Shown here: positions 34,416-46,163 of the stretch, piece after piece
Numbering within the stretch: the stretch's first letter is position 1
Layout of the letters: the number at the start of each line of letters is the position of its first letter
Source of the DNA: Gammaproteobacteria bacterium
GTDB taxonomy: Bacteria; Pseudomonadota; Gammaproteobacteria; Arenicellales; Arenicellaceae
DNA: 64,000 bases
NCBI GenBank assembly: GCA_017854775.1
Contig: JAFMHC010000001.1
Location: forward strand, 3,095 to 67,094
Direction: 5' to 3'
Notes under the pieces: model-generated
The model's input: only the letters and a program-made list of their open reading frames with translations
Told to the model about the DNA's origin: nothing
Database searches by the model: none
Translations under genes and position numbers: made by a program

Positions 34416-35204
34416 CTAGTCTGGCACGCTCACCTTACCGGCAACGTCTTTATGCTCAATGCCGCCCGACGAGTCTTCTAAGACGGTAAATTCTCCGCCA
34501 ACTTTATTCACATTAATAGAACCACTGCTGTCACTTCGCACTAATACGCTGCCCTTTATATACTCAGCGCTGATGCTTCCCGAGCTATCAACCTCGACGG
34601 TAAAGTTGCCGGCAACATAGCTTGTCGCAATAGAACCCGAGCTGTCAGTTACCGACACGTCGCCGTTTACTCGATTAATTCGCAAAGACCCAGAAGAATC
34701 CTCAACAGTCACATTACCGTCAATATCTTCGATGACGAGCTCGCCAGATGAATCAACCATCACCAGTGAAGCCGCTCGCACCACACTCGCCTTGCCGCTG
34801 CTGTCGGTGACGTCGAGCTTAGCGTTGACCGGCACGTGTAAGGTTAAATCAATATAGGCGCCATCACTATCAGTACCCCAGAGCATGCCCTCGGCAAACT
34901 TGGTTTTTACGTAGGTGATATCGCTCTTTAGCTCAGAGCTAACATCCATATCTGCCAACTGAGACTCACGCTCAGCGCATAACTTGGCTTCAATCAAAAC
35001 AGTTTTTCTATCCGCATCGCCGACTATTTCGAGCTTGCCGGCCCCCGCCACAATCGTTAATAAGGACGAATCGCTTAAGCTAAGTTCGCGCTTGATATCA
35101 CGAGTAAATTCACAATCATCTCCCCACGCCAATGCCGACGAAGAAATTACAAATGGCGACACCAATATCGATGCTACCGCCAAGCCTACTAATAAATTTT
35201 TCAT
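34416..35204 (-). CDS. second DUF4097-like beta-repeat exported protein
   Basis: Signal peptide; many DSSG(S/E)(I/L) repeat units. Confidence 0.85.
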   Translation of the reverse strand: MKNLLVGLAVASILVSPFVISSSALAWGDDCEFTRDIKRELSLSDSSLLTIVAGAGKLEIVGDADRKTVLIEAKLCAERESQLADMDVSSELKSDITYVKTKFAEGMLWGTDSDGAYIDLTLHVPVNAKLDVTDSSGKASVVRAASLVMVDSSGELVIEDIDGNVTVEDSSGSLRINRVNGDVSVTDSSGSIATSYVAGNFTVEVDSSGSISAEYIKGSVLVRSDSSGSINVNKVGGEFTVLEDSSGGIEHKDVAGKVSVPD

Positions 35205-35340: not shown

Positions 35341-35763
35341 ATGCTATGGATAAAATCTTTACACATTATCGCGGTCATCTGCTGGATGGCTGGAATCTTT
35401 TACCTGCCTCGCCTCTTTGTTTATCACGCGATGTCAGAAGACACTATTAGTAAAGAGCGCTTTAAAGTCATGGAACGCAAACTTTACAACGGCATAATGA
35501 CACCCTCGATGGTGGCGTCAATTATATTTGGCGCTTGGCTCTGGATTGGCTGGGGCTTCAGCGGTGGCTGGTTATACGCCAAACTCGCACTGGTATTGGC
35601 CTTGGTAACTTACCATTTATGGTGCGGGTCAACCATCAAAAAATTTGCCCGAGACGATATTCGGCATGGCCATGTTTTCTATCGCTGGCTTAACGAAGCA
35701 CCGATATTGCTGCTGGTCGGCATTGTTATTTTGGTCGTCGTTAAGCCAGATTTAGGCATTTAA
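35341..35763 (+). CDS. hemJ: protoporphyrinogen oxidase HemJ
   Basis: WIKSLHII...WMAGIFYLPRLFVYH, MERKL and RWLNEAP motifs. Confidence 0.95.
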   Translation: MLWIKSLHIIAVICWMAGIFYLPRLFVYHAMSEDTISKERFKVMERKLYNGIMTPSMVASIIFGAWLWIGWGFSGGWLYAKLALVLALVTYHLWCGSTIKKFARDDIRHGHVFYRWLNEAPILLLVGIVILVVVKPDLGI

Positions 35764-35795
35764 TTTTTAAAATAAGCGCATGCCGTAACAGCTTA

Positions 35796-36347
35796 CTAAT
35801 CGTCGGCCGAATAGGGATCTTCGGCTAACAGATAAGCGATCACTTCTGATCGGTTGCTCATGCTATCCATCATACTTTTGAATTCTTTGATCTTTTCATA
35901 GCGATCGCCAAATTTACGTTCATACAACTCGTGCATTACCTCAGCAGTCGCCGCATCTAAGATCTCATGTTGCCAGTGATCAGTGAAAATCTCACTCAAC
36001 TTAGATGCTAAGCCCTTCTCTTTGAGCAAATTCCACTCGCCTTTATCCAGCCAAACGGCATTCACTGTCGGGCTCAGATCCAATCGGTGCTGAGTGTCAG
36101 CAGAAATACGATATTTTGTCATCAAACGCTTACTTAGAGGGCAAATCATCGCTCTTGAGGTGTCTTCTGAAATCACCTCAACCTCAGCGCTAACCGGAAA
36201 TTCTGATTCTGGGTGCTGCTCCTGCCAGTGCTTAAAATCACGCAATAAAATCAGCTCACCAGCGCAATTTGAGCACGACTGACAAGCAAATAAATCATCG
36301 AAGTAAGAAGACTCTAGTCGTCCGGTTCCGCAAGATGGGCATTTCAT
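35796..36347 (-). CDS. zf-TFIIB-like zinc ribbon protein
   Basis: MKCPSC...CSNC, then a second degenerate ribbon (CPLSKRLM...VWLDKGEW). Confidence 0.8.
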   Translation of the reverse strand: MKCPSCGTGRLESSYFDDLFACQSCSNCAGELILLRDFKHWQEQHPESEFPVSAEVEVISEDTSRAMICPLSKRLMTKYRISADTQHRLDLSPTVNAVWLDKGEWNLLKEKGLASKLSEIFTDHWQHEILDAATAEVMHELYERKFGDRYEKIKEFKSMMDSMSNRSEVIAYLLAEDPYSADD

Positions 36348-36403
36348 AATAATTTACCTTTTGTTGATGAGTTTTAAACCTACAATTACTTTAGCATGAA
36401 ATA

Positions 36404-36459
36404 TTACATGTAACAATTCTTGACAAACTTACATGTAATAATTTATAGTCTCTTACATG
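36404..36459 (+). promoter_or_regulatory. sigma70 promoter overlapped by three TTACATG(TAA) operators
   Basis: TTACATGTAA at 36404 and 36429, TTACATG at 36453 (includes the ATG); TTGACA at 36420 and TATAGT at 36444. Confidence 0.8.
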
Positions 36460-37113
36460 ACGAAAAAATCATCAGCAGAATACCAGCGAGAGTATCGCAA
36501 GAGATTGCGGGAGCAGGGCCTGGTCAAAAAAGAGGTTTGGGTGTTGCCAGAGAACGGCAAATCACTCGCAAGCATCGAGAAAGAACTACGCAAGCCAACG
36601 CAACGGTCTATGGCCTTAGAAACTGGAACAGGAGGAATTGATATGAATGCAACTTTAAATGCAACTAATGTTAACGATAAGTCGGCCCACAGATGGACGA
36701 CCGAAAGCCTTTTTGGCGCACTCAAAGAGCGCCCCGCTTTCAATAACGATAGCTGCTCAATCGAAATAATTGACGGCATAGATTCAATCATAGTTGTATC
36801 TATGCACAACTATGGCGATTTACCCATTTTCGTCACCGCCGGTGGTGATCAAATCTTAGCCGAAGCCGTGTTGTTTTCACTCGATGAAGTAAAAGACACC
36901 GCCAAATTTAATGAATACGTATTACGAACACACAAGTATTTACCATTGTCGACCATCAGCCTCGAAACTGACATCACACATGGCGATTACTACTATATGT
37001 TCGGCGCCTTAAGCGCATCGTCCAGTGTTAATCAGGTTGTGGTGGAAATAGAAACCCTAGCTGAAAACACGATTCAAGCAACCGAGGCGTTTCAAACGTT
37101 TCTCAAAGAATAG
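36457..37113 (+). CDS. YjfI/DUF2170-family protein with N-terminal basic putative DNA-binding extension
   Basis: C-terminal LPIFVTAGGDQILAEAVLF...LPLST...YYMFGALSASS is DUF2170-like; N-terminus AEYQREYRKRLREQGLVKKEVWV. Confidence 0.8.
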   Translation: MTKKSSAEYQREYRKRLREQGLVKKEVWVLPENGKSLASIEKELRKPTQRSMALETGTGGIDMNATLNATNVNDKSAHRWTTESLFGALKERPAFNNDSCSIEIIDGIDSIIVVSMHNYGDLPIFVTAGGDQILAEAVLFSLDEVKDTAKFNEYVLRTHKYLPLSTISLETDITHGDYYYMFGALSASSSVNQVVVEIETLAENTIQATEAFQTFLKE

Positions 37114-37162
37114 CCCGCCTGTCTCAACTAACAATTTTAAGTAAACTAAATCGGAGTAAAAA

Positions 37163-37855
37163 ATGAACATTTGGTCAAAAATGATTACCGCACTACGTGG
37201 CGGCGCAAACGAAGCCGGTGAAGCAATTGTCGATGCGCAAGCATTGCGAATTCTTGACCAAGAAATCAGAGACGCGTCAGAAGAATTAAACAAGTCTAAG
37301 GACGGCCTCGCTTCGTTAATAGCACAGCAAAAACTGGCTGAAGAGAAAGCCTCTTCACTAAAAACTGAGATCAAGAAGAACGAAGGCTTTATTCTTGCCG
37401 CGCTCGAGAAGAAAGACGAATCGCTAGCCGGCGAACTGGCCACACGAGTAGCCAACTTTGAGAACAGTCTTGAGAGCGAAGCCGAGGCGGCCAAAAACTT
37501 TAAAGAACAAGCTGAAACCTTGCGTAATTCAATCCGTACTGCTGAACATCAAATAAAGCAATTGAAGCAACAAACTGAAACTGTTAAGGCAACCGAAGCA
37601 GTGCAACGTGCCCAACAAGTGGTGGCTCAACGCCATAACGGCAGCAGCTCTAAGCTTAGAACAGCGGTGGATTCGCTTGATCGAATTCAAGAGAAGCAAA
37701 AGCTTGCATCCGCGAAGATGAGTGCCGCCGCTGAAATTGCCGCTGACTCAAACGAGACCTCGCTTGATCAAAAGCTACGCGACGCGGGCATTACTGGCAG
37801 CAGTAGCTCTGATGACGTTCTGGCTCGAATGAAGGCGAAGGCTAAAAAGAAGTAG
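37163..37855 (+). CDS. PspA/IM30 family protein (YjfJ-like)
   Basis: MNIWSKMITALRGGANEAGEAIVDAQALRILDQEIRDA; C-terminal LDQKLRDAGI. Confidence 0.92.
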   Translation: MNIWSKMITALRGGANEAGEAIVDAQALRILDQEIRDASEELNKSKDGLASLIAQQKLAEEKASSLKTEIKKNEGFILAALEKKDESLAGELATRVANFENSLESEAEAAKNFKEQAETLRNSIRTAEHQIKQLKQQTETVKATEAVQRAQQVVAQRHNGSSSKLRTAVDSLDRIQEKQKLASAKMSAAAEIAADSNETSLDQKLRDAGITGSSSSDDVLARMKAKAKKK

Positions 37856-38048
37856 TTTTGGGCTTTTGAGATATACGCGAGCCATCTCAAAACAAAAAAC
37901 TAGCATAGCTTTCCAAACACTTGTTACTATCAACGCCGGGGTAGAACAAATCAAGCATCAGAACTTTAGTGCCGCGCTGCTTGGAAAGCTAGCGAAATAA
38001 CAATAAGTGGTAGTAAGCCACTACTCAACAACAAATACGGAGTCGCCG

Positions 38049-38726
38049 ATGTTCGCAATTTTTCTTCATGAGAGCATGAATCCATTTCACCAAACGGTAA
38101 CGTCGTTTCCAACGGTGATCTATACGGTGCTGCTGATTGTTTGTTCGTTGTACTGGGTAGTAGCGGCATTAGGTTTGGTCGATCTTGAAATTTTGGATTT
38201 AGACATGGACGGTGACATTGATGCCGCTGATTCAGTCGAAGCTCAAAACGGCATAGCTGGGGTATTGCTCAAGCTTGGCCTCAACGGGGTGCCATTGACG
38301 ATAGTACTGACTATCATTGCGATAATCGGTTGGATTGCTTGCTACTACGCAATCTATTTTGGCGGCGCATTAATCCCCAATTTTTGGCCGCTTGAACTCG
38401 CCTATGAATTAGTAATATTCGTCGCTGTAACTTACCTAACTATTTTGCTGACCGCACAGGTCATCAAGCCCATTCGCACTCTATTTCAAAAGCTCGAGCG
38501 CGACGAGACTAAGCATATCGTTGGCCAGGTTATCATCGTCAGGTCTGGCGTGGTAAACAAGGATCGTGGCGAAGGCTTGATGAATGATGGCGGTGCCGGT
38601 TTGCTATTGCAGATTCGGTCAACCGGTGAACAAGAGTTTGTAAAAGGCGACGAAGTGGTCGTGATAGAAGAAAACAAAGAAAGAAACTTATTTCGTGTAA
38701 TTGCAAAATCTGAATTTAGCGATTAA
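38049..38726 (+). CDS. YqiJ/NfeD-like membrane protein with C-terminal OB fold
   Basis: Four TM segments, LGLNGVPLTI, and C-terminal GAGLLLQIR...KGDEVVVIE; GGAG ribosome-binding site before 38049. Confidence 0.82.
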   Translation: MFAIFLHESMNPFHQTVTSFPTVIYTVLLIVCSLYWVVAALGLVDLEILDLDMDGDIDAADSVEAQNGIAGVLLKLGLNGVPLTIVLTIIAIIGWIACYYAIYFGGALIPNFWPLELAYELVIFVAVTYLTILLTAQVIKPIRTLFQKLERDETKHIVGQVIIVRSGVVNKDRGEGLMNDGGAGLLLQIRSTGEQEFVKGDEVVVIEENKERNLFRVIAKSEFSD

Positions 38727-38765
38727 CACACAAAATTAATATTAACGATAAGAAGGAGTTAAATA

Positions 38766-40652
38766 ATGGCTGATTTATCAGGGTATATGCCACTAATCAT
38801 TGTCACCGCGTTGTTGCTATTTTTCATAACCGGCTTAGCGATGCTGCTGAAAAAGTTCTACAATAAAGTAGCTCAAGGAACCGCTTTGATCATAAATACC
38901 ACACGATCAAAGCCCAAAGTGACCTTTACTGGTGGCTGGGTATTTCCGATTATCCATATGAAGGAATTGATGAAGATTTCATTGATTACTTTAGAGGTTG
39001 ATCGGCGTGGAAAAGACGGCTTAATCTGTCAAGACAACATGCGTGCAGACATCACCGTTGCTTTCTATCTTCGAGTCAACGAGACAGAGGAAGATGTATT
39101 ACGTGTGGCAAAAGCGGTGGGGACACAAAGAGCATCAGATACCCAAGCTGTGTACACATTATTTGCTGCGAAATTCTCAGAAGCACTGAAGACGGTCGGT
39201 AAGACATTAGAATTCGAACAGCTTTTCGAAGATCGTCAACGCTTTCGTGACGCGATTGTTGATGCAATTGGCAGCGACCTCAATGGCTACTCGCTTGAAG
39301 ACGTAGCAATTGATTACCTAGAACAAACTCCAAAGTCTGCGCTTGATCCAAATAATATCTTGGATTCGCAAGGTATCAAAAAGATCACCGAGCTAACCGC
39401 AACGCAAAACATTCAAACCAACATCTTCGAGAAAGACGAAGAGCTGGCGATAACCAAAAAGAACGTAGAAGCGCGTGAGGCAATGTTAGAACTTGAGCGC
39501 CAACAAGCCGATGCCGAAGCCAAACAAGCACGTGAAGTAGCGACTGTTATTGCTCGTGAAGAAGCTGAGACGTTGAAAATTCAAGAAGAAGAACGTTTAA
39601 AATCAGAAACCGCCTCTATTGAAGTAATACGCGACTTAGCGATTCAAACTGAGAATCAACAACGTGAAATCGAAATTGCTAACGAAAATCGCCAGCGTGC
39701 GGTGGCAATTGAAACTGAGAAAGTAGAACGCACCAAACGTATGGAACGTGTTCACAGTGATCGCGAAGTTGAGCTAACCAGCATTGAAGCCGAGAAAGAC
39801 ATCGAGCGCGAAAAGAAAAACATCGCCGATATTATCCGCGAACGCGTCGTGGTCGATAAAAGTGTGGCGATAGAAGAAGAAAAAATTAACGAAGTACGTG
39901 AAGTCTCCGAAGCCGATCGCGCTAAGCAAGTGCAGGTTAAAGCGGCCGAGGGTGATGCCGAAGAGAAGAAGGTTCGCGAAGTTAAAGCCGCTGAAGCCTT
40001 AGAGCTCGCTGCTAAACATAAGGCGGTTGAAATCACCACCCTCGCCGAAGCCAACCTAGAAGCCTCTGAGAAAGACGCCGCAGCCAAAATTAAACTGGCT
40101 GAAGGTGTTCGCCACGAAGAAGCCGCGAGCGGCTTAGCCCAAGCCGAAGTGGTTCGCGCAACTGGCGAATCGGAAGCCAAGGTTGTTCGCGATAAAGGCC
40201 AAGCTGAAGCCGACGTGATTCGCGTAAAAGGTGAATCGGAAGCATCAGCCACCTTAAGCGTAGGCCGCTCAACAGCCGACATTACACTGGCTCAATTCAA
40301 AGCCGAAGCCGAAGGCTTAACCGAGAAGTTCGAAGCCATGAATGCAATGAGCGTTGACGCTCGCTCGCATGAAGAGTTCCGCATGACTCTAGAAACAGCC
40401 TTGAAAGAGAGCTTAGCCACGATCGATGCTGGTAAAGAAATCTCCAAAGAAAATGCCGAGGTTCTTGGCACCGCATTACGTGAAGCTAAGATCGATATTG
40501 TTGGCGGTGAAGAGCACTTCTTCGATACTTTTGCCAAGTCACTATCAATGGGTAAGGCGATTGACGGACTAGCCAATAAGAGTGACACCATTCAGTCATT
40601 GCTAGGTCAAATTTCTAACTTTATGCCAAAGCCCGAAAACGACCCAAAATAG
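38766..40652 (+). CDS. flotillin-like SPFH protein (YqiK-like)
   Basis: N-terminal TM, GLICQDNMRADITVAFYLRV, DVAIDYLEQT and a long EA-rich coiled coil. Confidence 0.92.
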   Translation: MADLSGYMPLIIVTALLLFFITGLAMLLKKFYNKVAQGTALIINTTRSKPKVTFTGGWVFPIIHMKELMKISLITLEVDRRGKDGLICQDNMRADITVAFYLRVNETEEDVLRVAKAVGTQRASDTQAVYTLFAAKFSEALKTVGKTLEFEQLFEDRQRFRDAIVDAIGSDLNGYSLEDVAIDYLEQTPKSALDPNNILDSQGIKKITELTATQNIQTNIFEKDEELAITKKNVEAREAMLELERQQADAEAKQAREVATVIAREEAETLKIQEEERLKSETASIEVIRDLAIQTENQQREIEIANENRQRAVAIETEKVERTKRMERVHSDREVELTSIEAEKDIEREKKNIADIIRERVVVDKSVAIEEEKINEVREVSEADRAKQVQVKAAEGDAEEKKVREVKAAEALELAAKHKAVEITTLAEANLEASEKDAAAKIKLAEGVRHEEAASGLAQAEVVRATGESEAKVVRDKGQAEADVIRVKGESEASATLSVGRSTADITLAQFKAEAEGLTEKFEAMNAMSVDARSHEEFRMTLETALKESLATIDAGKEISKENAEVLGTALREAKIDIVGGEEHFFDTFAKSLSMGKAIDGLANKSDTIQSLLGQISNFMPKPENDPK

Positions 40653-40668
40653 GCTGCTCGAAAGCGAG

Positions 40669-40702
40669 ACACCGCAGTAGCTGTAGTCACTGCGGTGTAT
40701 TT
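40669..40702 (+). terminator. intercistronic hairpin / weak terminator
   Basis: ACACCGCAGT-N10-ACTGCGGTGT followed by ATTTT. Confidence 0.6.
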
Positions 40703-40808
40703 TGCTTAAACACTTGCCGAACCCTAATCGCTTTGCCCTAGACCCTTTACTAGACCCTTTAGTTGATCTAAACGCATTGCCCAATTGATTGCCAAGGACA
40801 GAGAAAAT

Positions 40809-43800
40809 ATGCCACAAGACGAAAAGCAAATAGTCGACTCCGCGGTCGCTGAAGCCGGTGCCTACGATGTCATTCGCAAACGTTTAGACGAGCAAGGAAC
40901 TCGGCTAAAGAAACTTGCGCAAACACTCAATGAAGCTCGCTTAGCCGAATTTGGCGGCGTGCAAATGCAGGCCATTGGTCGCACCCGTATTCGCACCGAA
41001 AATAACTGCGTGCCACGCGACATAGTGCAAGTTGGCAATACCATGCTGTTTGGCTATAACGTATTCATTGGACTAAAAAAGGAAACTAAGATCGATGACG
41101 TATTTGCCGCATTAGAACTGATTGAAAACAACGACAGCTTCGAATTAAAGCCTGTCGACCTAAGCACCACTTTTCTAAGCGACTCACGTTTTCAAGGTGA
41201 CTTTGATGAGCTATACCGATATTACAAAGAAGCCCGCTTAGTTAAGCTGACAACTAAAGACGGCAAGTTGCTAGCTGGCTTCCAAGTTGGTGAGCGGGCC
41301 AATGATTTGCGCGTTTTTCGCTGGTCAATCTCAGCTGATGGCAACGACATTAGCTATATCGATAATCGCGGTGAACGAGATATTCAACTCCCCGATCAAT
41401 ACGATTTTGAATGGACTGAATGCAAACGCGACAATTTTGTCCATGGCAAGCATCCTCATGTAAATATCGCCGATAAGGTTTTTGTAGAAACGATTGGTGG
41501 CGACCTCACGATAAAGATCGAAGACAACACCGAAGATGGCTTGGGCATCTATTCTGAACCAGTAGACGAAGCCAACCAATCGCTTGACGATGCTGATATA
41601 TCGTATGCCTTAGTCGGTGATTTAGTACTATTGGCAATCAAGCCTTATAAAGAAGAAACGACCCGTTATTTAGTTTTTAATACCCTAACCGAAGATGTGC
41701 ATCGCATTGATGCCATCGGCCAGTCGTGTGTTCAGCTGCCTGAAGACCACGGCATTATTTTCCCTGGCGGCGTGTACCTACAAACAGGGGAAACTAAACT
41801 ATTCCCTGATCAAGTAAGCGGCCTAGTTTTCAAACGCACCATTCGCTCGCCCAATGGCGAAGACGTGTTATACGTTTTCTACGAGCCAATCGAGGGGCGC
41901 TTTGCTCTTTTCAGCTATAACTTAATTACCAAGGGGCTGCAAAACCCGATCTACAGCAATGGCTATGCATTGCGTAACGACGGCAAGCTAGTAATATTTT
42001 CAGCCGAGCATGAGCCAACACGAGTACACCCCATGCAAGTTTGGCAAACTTCGTACATCAGCACTGAGTATGCCAGCCAACAACCTGAAAGCACGACCGA
42101 GCTGGGCAAAATTGGTAACTCCGAATTGGTTCGTGGTGTTTCTGACCTCTACTCAATTCAAACACAAATCGCCAACAAAGAAGTATCGATGCGCCATTAT
42201 GAAGAACTAAATGGCGCGGCAAAAAGAGTATTCGATACGCATTACTGGCTAGACAACTCCAGTCACGATGCAATAGCGGCAACACTGCGCGAGGTATCGG
42301 CAACCGCCGAGCTGGTGATCGACGAATTTGAGAAAGTTCAGAGCATTCAACAGCAGTCAACCCAGTCACTTAGCGACGCCAAATCTCAGCAACGTAAATT
42401 GCTCGGCGCTATCTCGACGACTACCTGGGAAAACGCCGCTCAATTTGTTGCCTCGATCTCTAAAATTCGCAAACAACGCGGACACATAGCGACGATCAAA
42501 AGCTACCGTTATATTAATCTCGAAGAGCTTACCGAACTAGATGACGAATTGGTCTCGACTGAAGCCGACTTAGGCGCGCGAACAGTTGAATTCTTAGCCG
42601 ACGAAAATGCATTAGACTCATACTCGCAACAAACCAGTGAGGTCACCGAGGCGATTGAGCAAGCGACCACCGATGCTGAGATACGCCCATTACTGGAGAG
42701 TATCGTCGAGACAACCTCTCAGCTGGATTTATTGTCTGAGTTAATCACCACACTAAAGATTGACGACACCACCATTCGAACTCGCATAGTCGACACCATC
42801 TCGGAAGTCTATGCCAAGCTAAATCAAACTAAAGCGCGCGGCACACAAAAGCAAAAAGGCTTAGGATCAGAAGAAGCTATTGCGCAATTTTCAGCCCAAT
42901 TCAAGCTGTTCTCGCAAAGCATCACCAATGCCTTAGGCGTTGCTAACACGCCCGATAAGTGTGATGAACAACTGGCCAAACTGCTGGTTCAATTGGAAGA
43001 CTTAGAAAGCCAATTCAGTGACTATGATCAGTTCTTAAGCGACATTATGGACAAGCGTGAGGCGATTTACGAATCGTTTGAAGCGCACAAACAAAGCTTA
43101 ATGGAAGCGCGCCAGCGTCGCGCGCAAACCTTAACAGACTCAGCTGATCGAATTCTGAAAAGCATTGAAAAACGCTCACTAAAATTAAAAGACAGCGACG
43201 AGCTAAACACCTACTTCGCCTCGGACACCTTAGTTTTAAAAACTAATGAGTTGATCCAACAACTGCGCGACTTAGATTCTGAAGTAGCCGCCGATGATGT
43301 GCACTCGCGCTTCAAAGCGTTAAGAGAACAGTCGGTCCGCTCACTAAGGGATAAAAACGACATCTACGAAGATGGCGGCAAAGTCATCAAGCTTGGACCC
43401 AAACACAAGTTCAGCGTTAATCAGCAAGAGTTAGATCTGACGATTATTCCGCGTAATGACGAGTTGTTCTTTCATCTAATCGGCACCGACTACTACGAGC
43501 CAGTCAACGACCAGACGCTGCAACAGTCACAGCAGTATTGGTCAATGTCATTGGAATCTGAGACGCCTGAACTGTATCGGGCAGAATACCTAGCCTACTT
43601 GGTCATCACCGCGGCACAGCAAGAGCGTGACGAGCTAAGCATGGCGACCCTAAAAAGCGCCGCTAAAGAAATCGACGTACTAACCAAGCTGGTTCGTGAC
43701 TTTTCAACGCCGTACTACAAACATGGCTATCAGAAAGGCATTCATGACAGTGATGCCGCTCTGATTATCCAAGCCGCTCTGCCAGTAATGGCTTCTGCTG

Positions 43801-46163
43801 AGCTATTAATGTTCGGGCCTTTTGCGCGCGGTTTAGCATCTCTCTTCTGGGCCAACTTGAATGATTCAAAGGTTAAAGACAGTTGGCAACAGCGTGCCAC
43901 CTCGGCGGTCACCTTAAATAGGCTATTCGCCGATAATAAAGCCGAAGCCTTGCTAGCCAGCGAAATCGCTGAACACATAACCGCCTTCATCGAACACTAC
44001 CCAATTACCGCAGACCCGCAGAGTGTGAGTAGATCAGCCCACTATTTGCTAGAGCAGCTGGCAAGCAATGCCACACAGTTTAGTCAAAGCAAATACGCTC
44101 GTGATTTAGTCGCCGACTTTAACCGAGCTCTGGACGACAAGTCGCGCCAGCAGTTCACCTCGTCGCTAGAGGCTCTGGGCGCACAACCAGATCAACAATG
44201 GGCATTGGCGCACGCATGGTTAACTGCGGTAGTAGAGCGCAAAGAGTTAGGCCCCTTAAAACGTTACATCCCGGAAGCGGCGGCGAATTTAATCGGCGGT
44301 GTTGAGCTAAGCGCCAACGATGCCAAACTAGAACTAAGTATTGGCAGCTTACTCGGCGAGCATATTAAAATCACCAGCCAGACTCTTAATTTTAGTTTGG
44401 ATGAATACTGGCAACGTATGCAACGCCATGAAAACAAAACACTGCCCGAATACCATCACTATTTAGAGTTACGCTCGAACACCATGAAGCAAGAGCGTAG
44501 CCAATTGAAGCTAGAATCATTCAAGGCTAAACCGCTTAGTTCCTTTGTTCGAAACCGCTTGGTCAACGAGTCTTACTTGCCACTCATTGGCGACAACTTA
44601 GCCAAGCAAATGGGCACCGTCGGCGAAAATAAGCGTACCGACCTGATGGGCTTGTTGATGATGATCTCACCGCCTGGCTACGGTAAAACCACCTTGATGG
44701 AATACGTCGCCAATCGTCTCGGCTTAATCTTCATGAAGATCAACTGCCCCGCCCTAGGTCATGATGTAACCTCATTAGACCCAGAGCAAGCACCCAACTC
44801 GACCGCTCGCCAAGAGCTTGAGAAGATCAATTTGAGCTTTGAGATGGGCAATAATGTGATGCTCTACCTTGATGATATTCAGCATACTCACCCGGAATTT
44901 TTGCAAAAATATATCTCACTTTGTGATGGTACTCGTCGTATTGAAGGCGTGTGGCGTGGCAAAACGAAAACCTATGATATGCGCGGCAAGAAGTTTTGTG
45001 TCGTCATGGCCGGTAACCCATACACCGAGTCTGGCGAAGTTTTCAAAGTTCCAGACATGCTGGCTAACCGCGCAGATATTTATAACCTCGGTGACATTTT
45101 AGGCGGCATGGAAGAGATATTTGCCCTTAGCTATGTTGAAAACTCACTGACCTCGAACCCAGTACTGGCGCCGCTTGCGACTCGTGAGATGCAAGATGTT
45201 TATCACCTAGTGGCAATGGCGCAAGGTGAGAACGTGGCAACTACCGAACTCAGTCATCAATACAGCGCCGCTGAATTAAACGAAATAACCAGCGTGCTGC
45301 AAAAGATGTTTGTGATTCAAGAGCTGATTCTAAAAGTGAATCAACAATACATTGCATCGGCTGCACAAGCTGATAGATATCGCACCGAACCACCGTTTAA
45401 ATTGCAAGGCAGCTATCGCAACATGAACAAGATGGCTGAAAAAATCTCATCGGTGATGAACCAAGAAGAGCTGATGCAATTAATCGAAGACCACTATCAA
45501 GGTGAGTCTCAGCTACTAACCAATGGTACCGAAGAAAACTTACTGAAACTGGCCGAACTTCGCGGCAACATGAGTGAACCGCAAAAAGCACGCTGGGCGC
45601 AAATCAAAGACGACTTCTCACGCAGCAAAGCAATGGGCGGTGAAGACGCCGATGGTAGCGTTAAAATTGCCAATCAGATGATCAACTTAGTCGAGCAAAT
45701 AAAAACTATTAAGACCTCAGTTGAAGGTTCTTCAGTTGCTGCCAGAGAACGACTAGAAGATCAAAACCAATTCGAAATAAAGCTGGCTAGGTCTCAACGC
45801 AAAAACCAAGCCGAGAACCTAGAGGCTTTGTTAGCGGCACTGCAAAAGATTAGTGACTCTGTCGGCCAGCCCTCTGACACCGTGGTAGAAATTATCAATC
45901 AACCATCGTCCAAGATCGGCGATACCCTAGAAGTGTTAGCCAAGTCAATGGAGCACAGCATTAAGCCATTAATTCTCAGTATGGAGAAAAAAATGGACAT
46001 TGATTTACGCACACTGGAAAACATCCAAGAACTAGGTAATCGTATAGATGCGATCAAAATAGCCGCCGCTAAAACTACTCGCACTATCGAAAAAACCAGC
46101 TCAAAGAAACGTAGTAAAAAAGTCGATACCGATAAAGATAGCTCTGACAGTAAACGCTTCTAA
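40809..46163 (+). CDS. large AAA+ ATPase (DUF3686, so-called DNA repair ATPase family)
   Basis: Beta-rich N-terminus, long helical middle, Walker A SPPGYGKTT, Walker B LYLDD, AGNPY, LANRAD; ATG at 40809 after GAGA. Confidence 0.88.
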   Translation: MPQDEKQIVDSAVAEAGAYDVIRKRLDEQGTRLKKLAQTLNEARLAEFGGVQMQAIGRTRIRTENNCVPRDIVQVGNTMLFGYNVFIGLKKETKIDDVFAALELIENNDSFELKPVDLSTTFLSDSRFQGDFDELYRYYKEARLVKLTTKDGKLLAGFQVGERANDLRVFRWSISADGNDISYIDNRGERDIQLPDQYDFEWTECKRDNFVHGKHPHVNIADKVFVETIGGDLTIKIEDNTEDGLGIYSEPVDEANQSLDDADISYALVGDLVLLAIKPYKEETTRYLVFNTLTEDVHRIDAIGQSCVQLPEDHGIIFPGGVYLQTGETKLFPDQVSGLVFKRTIRSPNGEDVLYVFYEPIEGRFALFSYNLITKGLQNPIYSNGYALRNDGKLVIFSAEHEPTRVHPMQVWQTSYISTEYASQQPESTTELGKIGNSELVRGVSDLYSIQTQIANKEVSMRHYEELNGAAKRVFDTHYWLDNSSHDAIAATLREVSATAELVIDEFEKVQSIQQQSTQSLSDAKSQQRKLLGAISTTTWENAAQFVASISKIRKQRGHIATIKSYRYINLEELTELDDELVSTEADLGARTVEFLADENALDSYSQQTSEVTEAIEQATTDAEIRPLLESIVETTSQLDLLSELITTLKIDDTTIRTRIVDTISEVYAKLNQTKARGTQKQKGLGSEEAIAQFSAQFKLFSQSITNALGVANTPDKCDEQLAKLLVQLEDLESQFSDYDQFLSDIMDKREAIYESFEAHKQSLMEARQRRAQTLTDSADRILKSIEKRSLKLKDSDELNTYFASDTLVLKTNELIQQLRDLDSEVAADDVHSRFKALREQSVRSLRDKNDIYEDGGKVIKLGPKHKFSVNQQELDLTIIPRNDELFFHLIGTDYYEPVNDQTLQQSQQYWSMSLESETPELYRAEYLAYLVITAAQQERDELSMATLKSAAKEIDVLTKLVRDFSTPYYKHGYQKGIHDSDAALIIQAALPVMASAELLMFGPFARGLASLFWANLNDSKVKDSWQQRATSAVTLNRLFADNKAEALLASEIAEHITAFIEHYPITADPQSVSRSAHYLLEQLASNATQFSQSKYARDLVADFNRALDDKSRQQFTSSLEALGAQPDQQWALAHAWLTAVVERKELGPLKRYIPEAAANLIGGVELSANDAKLELSIGSLLGEHIKITSQTLNFSLDEYWQRMQRHENKTLPEYHHYLELRSNTMKQERSQLKLESFKAKPLSSFVRNRLVNESYLPLIGDNLAKQMGTVGENKRTDLMGLLMMISPPGYGKTTLMEYVANRLGLIFMKINCPALGHDVTSLDPEQAPNSTARQELEKINLSFEMGNNVMLYLDDIQHTHPEFLQKYISLCDGTRRIEGVWRGKTKTYDMRGKKFCVVMAGNPYTESGEVFKVPDMLANRADIYNLGDILGGMEEIFALSYVENSLTSNPVLAPLATREMQDVYHLVAMAQGENVATTELSHQYSAAELNEITSVLQKMFVIQELILKVNQQYIASAAQADRYRTEPPFKLQGSYRNMNKMAEKISSVMNQEELMQLIEDHYQGESQLLTNGTEENLLKLAELRGNMSEPQKARWAQIKDDFSRSKAMGGEDADGSVKIANQMINLVEQIKTIKTSVEGSSVAARERLEDQNQFEIKLARSQRKNQAENLEALLAALQKISDSVGQPSDTVVEIINQPSSKIGDTLEVLAKSMEHSIKPLILSMEKKMDIDLRTLENIQELGNRIDAIKIAAAKTTRTIEKTSSKKRSKKVDTDKDSSDSKRF

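Follow-up and report, generated by a model that had tools for sequence, protein, structure and literature searches.

A BacA/YjfI-family protein with a DNA-binding-type N-terminus is the probable autorepressor of a PspA-flotillin-AAA+ operon in Arenicella

How are the operons switched on in which a bacA/yjfI gene is followed by a PspA-family gene? Such operons are present in at least 230 species of the collection searched, P. aeruginosa included, where the bac operon affects biofilm, rhamnolipids and virulence, and the sole prior proposal for their switching-on is a sigma-54 site placed relative to a short annotated gene. We analyzed one of them in a 64,000-nucleotide stretch (the window) of an Arenicella assembly (GCA_017854775.1, contig JAFMHC010000001.1). 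The first gene of this operon, which is of the PspA membrane-stress type, encodes a protein of 218 aa made of a basic N-terminal domain of 48 residues, here called the head, a linker and a DUF2170 domain. We conclude that this long form is probably the repressor of its own operon, and that its operator would be a pair of palindromic boxes in a sigma-70-type promoter; all coordinates are collected in Table 1.

The DUF2170 part of the protein matches Pfam PF09938 with 159.2 bits against a gathering cut-off of 27 (E 6e-47), which places it in the DUF2170/YjfI family, and PDB entry 8q8o, the short form of P. aeruginosa BacA (146 aa), matches residues 77-217 only (E 4e-28). The NCBIfam model for BacA, NF050185 (206 positions), aligns end to end, residues 1-217 on profile positions 1-203, and the N-terminal 62 residues alone match its first 54 positions (E 1e-22). 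The score, 262.3 bits, lies below the 300-bit equivalog cut-off; on these profile alignments the protein is a BacA homolog of the same head-DUF2170 architecture, not an equivalog by NCBI's rule. The initial annotation had seen a basic segment ahead of DUF2170, which we find at residues 9-29 in front of a domain at residues 80-216, and had taken it for an extension fused to YjfI. The head is indeed fused to DUF2170, yet it is not special to this genome: the end-to-end alignment and the match of the head alone mean that the extension is not a local fusion, and by the same profiles BacA-family proteins normally begin this way and are mis-annotated.

The gene order is also that of BacA operons, the first gene being followed by PspA/IM30, flotillin-like and AAA+ genes. 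Beyond the PspA/IM30 gene lie three more: the first codes for 239 aa without a family assignment, the second for a flotillin-like protein (628 aa) and the third for an ATPase of the DUF3686/DUF7902/AAA+ type (1792 aa). Operons of the CesT/Tir-PspA type with band-7/flotillin and AAA+ genes and a matching gene set were described by Ravi et al. 2024 (PMC11237479). We thus have good reason to regard the operon as orthologous to bac (bacA-F) of P. aeruginosa, with a first gene that probably codes for its own repressor. The bacA/yjfI gene is present in 8 of 24 other Arenicella genomes, and the operon is therefore accessory in the genus. No PspF-type activator was found among the genes scanned with Pfam. 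Nor does a toxin gene lie next to the head, as in type II toxin-antitoxin systems, the neighbours being the PspA-family gene downstream and a gene for a Zn-ribbon protein upstream.

The promoter scan ranked first, in 35700-37300, a sigma-70-type promoter with TTGACA and TATAGT separated by 18 nt, which agrees with the consensus at 11 of 12 positions. Perfect palindromes at 36404 and 36429, the second inside the spacer of this promoter, had been claimed by the initial annotation together with spacings of 25 and 24 bp. The sequence bears out both statements: the two copies of TTACATGTAA are 25 bp apart from start to start, and a half-site, TTACATGACG, lies 24 bp past the second box. ATG 36457 follows the -10 hexamer by 7 nt and has no Shine-Dalgarno (SD) sequence before it. 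In the window the two boxes are the sole matches to the palindrome at up to one mismatch. Exact TTACATGTAA occurs twice in the whole 4.86-Mb assembly, both times at the bacA/yjfI promoter, while exact TYACATGTRA was observed 8 times genome-wide against 25 expected, and the only genome-wide pair of it (at most one mismatch, 15-35 bp apart) is the one at this promoter. Palindromes of 6 bp are generally depleted in the genome (observed/expected: ACATGT 0.37, TGTACA 0.35, ATATAT 0.50, AGATCT 0.61, ACGCGT 0.63), so the twin boxes are not a compositional accident, and the perfect pair is therefore more striking, not less. CATG (0.84) and GATC (0.95) are nearly at expectation. Avoidance of CATG through methylation or restriction was considered as a source of the boxes and rejected, as every 6-bp palindrome tested is depleted.

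The same arrangement recurs in other species. A pattern scan with one genome per species found 230 genomes that encode the head, of which the best 80 loci were compared, a box being counted when TYACATGTRA was matched with at most one mismatch within 130 bp of the ATG. Results showed at least two boxes in 79 of the 80 loci (two in 62, three in 17), against a background of 12 box matches in 457 kb elsewhere in those loci. The set spans Arenicella, Cellvibrionaceae, Pseudomonas, Oleiphilaceae, Oleispira, Hahella, Saezia and others, and the upstream neighbours change from one to another. Positions are also kept: in 67/80 loci the start of the proximal box is 27-28 nt upstream of the ATG, the second box lies 47-53 nt upstream of it in 79/80, and the third, if present, starts at -64 to -76, with a box-to-box spacing of 21-25 bp. 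In 77 loci anchored on the proximal ACATGT core, whose invariance there is by construction, a TTGACA-like hexamer lies 5-10 nt upstream of the proximal box (first T in 97%) and TAnnnT lies 13-18 nt downstream of it (T 79%, A 81%, last T 87%). Boxes, hexamers and ATG spacing are kept in all nine Arenicella loci. The triple operator that had been proposed stands in part: the half-site on the start codon exists and is kept in 7 of the 9 Arenicella loci, but it is genus-specific and absent in other genera; 17 other loci have, in its stead, a full third box further upstream.

If the head reads these boxes, they should be missing where the head is missing, and this was the check put forward with the initial annotation. 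As a negative control, 300 genomes of the class were sampled for DUF2170 genes: boxes were present at 2/2 extended genes and at 0/10 unextended ones. Motif and extension thus vary together as expected, 79/80 extended loci having two boxes or more. Seven of the ten unextended yjfI-type loci (L095-L101) carry instead 2-3 copies of a 13-bp palindrome, GACATAWTATGTC, around TTGACA within about 100 bp upstream. No head homolog was found within 1.5 kb of these loci, and the GACATAWTATGTC palindromes suggest a second, separate regulator for the unextended operon type.

We also looked at divergent heads. A P. nitritireducens-type locus (L114) has twin TCACCGGTGA; L123 has TCACCTGTGA and TCACAGGTGA, 22 bp apart; and L125 combines a TTACCGGTAA in the spacer with a TTACCAGTAA 25 bp further downstream. 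All keep the TYAC..GTRA arms with another central dinucleotide (CG, CT/AG and CG/CA, respectively); these three belong to yjfIJK-type operons (DUF2491, ion channel) and are not leaderless. Two other divergent-head loci, L118 and L124, retain TTACATGTAA, and L115, L117 and L121 show single inverted repeats from GTAA/TTAC-like half-sites. The comparison is suggestive, and only suggestive, of an operator change accompanying head divergence. Relatives of the variant head P0056 were sought in a metagenome scan, which gave two spurious loci, and in a word-index search, which gave only P0056 itself; this leaves the TCACCGGTGA variant with a single locus.

The head is predicted to form a dimer of a type known for binding DNA. 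AlphaFold2 was used with a 124-row alignment (a single-sequence run gave a predicted local distance difference test score, pLDDT, of 36) and modelled the head at pLDDT 70-90, as helix 6-19, extended segment 20-30 and helix 31-44, with DUF2170 above 90. Two copies of the head were predicted to pair with a score of 0.43, the best control giving 0.00, with at least 97% contact agreement between runs and pLDDT of at least 77; for calibration, of 30 proteins whose solved structures are pairs of one chain, 20 attain this mark, and of 23 with single-chain structures, one does. These models support a head homodimer rather than demonstrate it. The predicted contacts pair residues 26-26, 25-27, 24-28, 23-29 and 22-30, with helix 2 touching residues 27 and 29; they amount to an antiparallel ribbon of segments 22-30 with two-fold symmetry, in which the V23/K25/V27/I29 face packs on the helices while the nearly invariant L22/K24/E26/W28 face is left exposed, as in ribbon-helix-helix (RHH) repressors. 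With Arc, MetJ, CopG and many type II antitoxins the head shares a domain of about 45 residues, a predicted antiparallel two-stranded ribbon dimer, short promoter palindromes in tandem copies about two turns apart and putative autoregulation. It differs from them in its order, helix-strand-helix, and its ribbon is a putative DNA contact. No RHH family model appeared among the Pfam matches of the head or of 42 relatives, and on the models the head is RHH-like in its working mode and not a member of the RHH superfamily.

Aligned by hhalign to eight members of PF11455 (MazE-like, formerly DUF3018), the head gave a probability of 93% (E 2.8e-7) over 25 columns that cover the basic helix and the strand, and 22 of 42 heads gave weak direct PF11455 matches. 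By this alignment the head is distantly related to the DUF3018/MazE-like antitoxins: the motif R-x2-R-x2-LR-x2-GL-x4-W-[VI]-P of basic helix and strand is shared, whereas the C-terminal halves are unrelated and the head is fused to DUF2170, not to a toxin-neutralising tail. NCBIfam also matched plasmid RepC (IncL/M) and 'plasmid repression protein F' weakly (E about 0.01); these are no more than leads, as are the results of an ESM Atlas feature search with the head (scores up to 0.87). An exhaustive profile search of 1.84 billion representatives gave 139 head clusters, about 50 of them fused to DUF2170 and many standalone, with 44-60 aa. Standalone homologs of 46-47 aa, P0052 and P0084, sit in tight arrays of small genes (L104:3001-3141; L105:109-252); one standalone-homolog array lies on a 55-kb contig, and one homolog is upstream of a phage P1 Gp16-like gene. 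From this gene context the head domain probably also circulates in phages.

The main alternative is that the palindromes are operators of a separately encoded factor and that the head serves some other purpose, for instance binding to a protein or a membrane, or modulation of the chaperone domain. The head reaches no curated DNA-binding family above threshold and its binding is a prediction, and trans-acting regulators do exist, as the unextended yjfI operons evidently use another factor via GACATAWTATGTC. Against this, 79/80 loci, from many families and with differing upstream genes, have both box and head, the box is missing at 10/10 unextended loci and altered where the head diverges, the box pair is the sole one in the genome, and the head is predicted as a ribbon dimer of the DNA-binding RHH type. 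We consider a separate factor improbable.

In P. aeruginosa, a bacA::Tn mutant has a raised abundance of BacB-F (PMC10948618), and this over-accumulation fits a block of RNA polymerase by head-bound boxes. That the long isoform binds the boxes to activate, or acts dually, would agree with the distal box directly upstream of the -35 (the position of a class II activator), with the sub-optimal 18-nt spacer and with the third upstream box of 17 loci. The proximal box, however, lies within the -35/-10 spacer in nearly all loci, a classic position for a repressor, the hexamers already match the consensus at 11 of 12 positions, and the bacA mutant has more, not less, Bac protein (PMC10948618), so that activation appears somewhat less probable even than a separate factor. 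Repression of the PspA-flotillin-ATPase operon by the fusion protein, which the initial annotation had inferred, agrees with both the box in the spacer and the mutant.

The leaderless start put forward by the initial annotation receives support on two sides. Across the 77 anchored loci, the distance from the last T of the -10 to the A of the ATG is 7-8 nt in 66. In P. aeruginosa PA14, differential RNA sequencing (Wurtzel 2012, PMC3460626, Table S3) gave transcription unit 841 (PA14_16140-16150) a transcription start site (TSS) at 1374599, with the annotated start of the first open reading frame (ORF) at 1374776, read as a 177-nt 5' untranslated region (PMC3460626). The second Met of the P. aeruginosa long form (P0009) is residue 60, the annotated and crystallised start; 59 codons are 177 nt, and therefore the PA14 TSS is the first base of the long ORF. 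The long-form mRNA of PA14 is leaderless, and from the 7-nt gap between -10 and ATG we infer the same for the Arenicella mRNA. Metatranscriptome contigs of four runs over 35700-38200 begin at 36486, 36520, 36542 and 36679; their ends differ, contigs cannot show a TSS, and none in the four runs covers 36123-36485.

That the head is translated follows from its codons. Nucleotide entropy at codon positions 1/2/3 is 0.66/0.39/1.43 (codons 5-47, 80 loci), variation at position 3 being 2-3.6 times that at positions 1 and 2, and the head frame runs open into DUF2170 in all 79 complete loci despite differences in linker length. On this pattern of variation the head is translated and under coding selection.

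The gene also carries a second start. In 75/79 loci, a GGAG-type SD precedes an in-frame ATG or GTG near codons 59-69, shortly ahead of DUF2170, against 20 such SDs at 634 other in-frame ATG/GTG codons. The peptide at this start varies (TGGxxM, KGExxM, EKEEGM, TGVxxM) while GGAG is kept, which indicates selection on the RNA signal. Since internal SD and ATG are conserved, the gene should therefore also give a headless isoform with DUF2170 only. In L027 and L037, two metagenome-assembled genomes of Granulosicoccaceae, the proximal boxes are degenerate (TTATGTGTAA, TTACGTGTAA), TTACTTGTAA replaces the -35, and the internal SD and start were not detected; judging from these two loci, this lineage may have lost the short isoform. 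It is very unlikely that the upstream 186 nt are a conserved untranslated leader with unrelated palindromes and that only the SD-driven 156-aa protein is made. In favour of such a leader, the annotated and crystallised form of PA3732/PA14_16140 has 146 aa, the internal SD is both strong and well kept, and leaderless translation in Gammaproteobacteria is usually inefficient. The excess of variation at position 3 contradicts it, as do 79/79 loci with neither stop nor frameshift across variable linkers, the standalone small-ORF homologs of the head and the coverage of the long form by NCBI's BacA model.

Autorepression by the long isoform could then work as follows. The sigma-70 promoter would initiate at, or one base from, the A of ATG 36457, giving a leaderless mRNA, and translation from this ATG would yield the 218-aa isoform with its basic head of 48 residues, disordered linker and CesT-like DUF2170. 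Two heads would pair via their strands into an RHH-like beta-ribbon reading the 10-bp TYACATGTRA, probably via the exposed Lys24/Glu26/Trp28 face. With the spacer box and the box abutting the -35 occupied, RNA polymerase would be excluded and the PspA-flotillin-AAA+ operon would be off. From the same mRNA, the internal SD and ATG (Met63) would give the headless DUF2170-only isoform; DUF2170 could tie together the dimers bound at either box, a contact for which the short isoform might be a competitor. The initial annotation had proposed the chaperone-like domain as the sensor; DUF2170, which is dimeric in the crystal structure and predicted to bind BacB, would be the likely input module, and its likely partner, as far as modelling goes, is the PspA/IM30-family protein; a BacA-BacB contact was predicted at 0.981 (PMC13092808).

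A more elaborate version, which we find possible but doubtful, is a self-titrating switch of two isoforms in which head ribbon and DUF2170 dimer chain across the twin or triple operators. The long isoform, having two pairing surfaces (head ribbon and DUF2170 dimer), would repress cooperatively, and an abundant SD-driven headless isoform, free BacB, or both, would cap DUF2170 and break the chain. The ratio of leaderless to SD-driven translation, together with the membrane state of PspA, would set operon expression. This version would also have the head define a hitherto undescribed helix-strand-helix variant of the RHH DNA-binding fold, common to small phage proteins and DUF3018 antitoxins.

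Several points weigh against autorepression by the long isoform. It is by inference that the head binds DNA, that the long isoform represses and that a short isoform exists and plays a part, and the same goes for the signal. The best Pfam match of the head, PF11455, reaches 15.6-16.2 bits, below its cut-off of 22, and Pfam gave no above-threshold match to a curated DNA-binding family; a PDB profile search with the head found nothing below E 0.35, KorA and other matches being at chance level. Its order, helix-strand-helix, is not the canonical strand-helix-helix of RHH, and the dimer is a prediction from an alignment that we built ourselves. The co-variation with altered operators is that of a single locus per variant, and the species are related, so that 79/80 overstates the independent support. 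No TTACATGTAA was found near the standalone phage-like homologs, and these are therefore uninformative on the DNA target. The TSS was measured in the P. aeruginosa PA14 ortholog and is predicted in Arenicella, and the short form could possibly come from an internal promoter instead. Finally, the P. aeruginosa mutant is a transposon insertion, and read-out from the transposon could raise the downstream proteins.

Table 1. Coordinates, in the window, of the bacA/yjfI gene, its promoter and its operon
Feature	Position	Strand	Description
Operator box 1 (distal)	36404-36413	.	Perfect palindrome TTACATGTAA; 6 bp upstream of -35
-35 hexamer TTGACA	36420-36425	+	Promoter scan
Operator box 2 (proximal)	36429-36438	.	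Perfect palindrome TTACATGTAA within the -35/-10 spacer
-10 hexamer TATAGT	36444-36449	+	Promoter scan
Half-site TTACATGACG overlapping the start codon	36453-36462	.	Left half-site; function uncertain
bacA/yjfI-family ORF	36457-37113	+	218 aa plus stop
Long-isoform ATG and predicted TSS (leaderless mRNA)	36457-36459	+	No SD, 7 nt after -10
N-terminal head, aa 1-48	36457-36600	+	Helix 6-19, strand 22-30, helix 31-44; predicted DNA-binding, RHH-like dimer
Linker, variable in length and sequence	36601-36693	+	Disordered; pLDDT <50 for residues 51-74; always in frame
Internal ribosome-binding site and start of the predicted headless short isoform	36630-36645	+	AGGAGG 36630-36635, 7 nt, in-frame ATG 36643 (Met63)
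DUF2170 (CesT/Tir-like chaperone fold), residues 80-216	36694-37104	+	Pfam PF09938
PspA/IM30-family gene (BacB/YjfJ equivalent)	37163-37855	+	PF04012, E 1e-45
Operon remainder, presumed same promoter	38007-46163	+	239-aa, 628-aa and 1792-aa proteins

The closest known system is the bac operon of P. aeruginosa. BacA has about 48% identity to the Arenicella protein, the homology extends over the full length, and the operon is alike (DUF2170, PspA-like, membrane protein, flotillin-like, giant AAA+); BacA is reported to control it negatively there (PMC10948618), matching the role proposed here. L046, from P. paraeruginosa, shares the twin boxes, the -10-to-ATG spacing and the internal SD with ATG with Arenicella. 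The box sequences differ: in Arenicella there are two perfect copies of TTACATGTAA and, on the ATG, the half-site, and Pseudomonas has mostly the TTACATGTGA type. In previous work PA3732 (BacA) was treated as a 16-kDa protein of 146 aa with a putative RpoN site upstream (PMC2587700, PMC10948618), and neither paper mentions the head, the palindromes or a leaderless start. Upstream of 36457, the consensus scan found no sigma-54 consensus, the best match being wrong at 4 of 11 specified positions, and GG-N10-GC strings occur only inside the coding region of the head, at 36534 and 36556. The strings in 36534-36570 are partly forced by the conserved EVWVLP codons. A comparable string in P. aeruginosa may have been read as the RpoN site 'upstream of pa3732'.

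The E. coli-type unextended YjfI has the same DUF2170 gene followed by a PspA-family gene, without the head and without TYACATGTRA. The E. coli PspF-PspA and the type III secretion ExsC-ExsE-ExsD-ExsA circuits are similar in that protein contacts let an effector of the PspA family, or a chaperone with the CesT fold, regulate transcription of its own operon by feedback, whereas here a DNA-binding-type module is fused to the chaperone fold and the promoter is of the sigma-70 type and predicted to be leaderless. The literature on BacA/YjfI operons yielded no description of the head, the operator, a sigma-70 leaderless promoter or a two-isoform layout, and a literature search for the motif string returned nothing relevant. 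The operon type and the BacA protein are already known; the proposed fused, leaderless, two-isoform layout of an RHH-like autorepressor is new with respect to the papers found. The evidence corrects the gene model to a long form of 206-218 aa beginning at the transcription start, replaces the proposed sigma-54 promoter by a sigma-70 leaderless one, names the operator and a likely repressor, and predicts a second, headless isoform. It also gives a first, putative function to an unannotated domain of 48 residues that occurs fused to DUF2170 or free in phage-like arrays. The same layout is present in about 80 species, including P. aeruginosa, where work on the gene has been confined to its short form.

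Two genes on the other side of the promoter deserve mention. A divergent gene (35796-36347, - strand), whose start is 57 bp from box 1, encodes a 183-aa protein with an N-terminal TFIIB-type zinc ribbon; most Arenicella loci retain this neighbour, other genera do not. Further away, at 34416-35204 (- strand), a 262-aa protein weakly matches the LiaG/LiaX type (E 1e-7, well short of the cut-off), which is an envelope-stress theme at a distance of 1.2 kb from the PspA operon.

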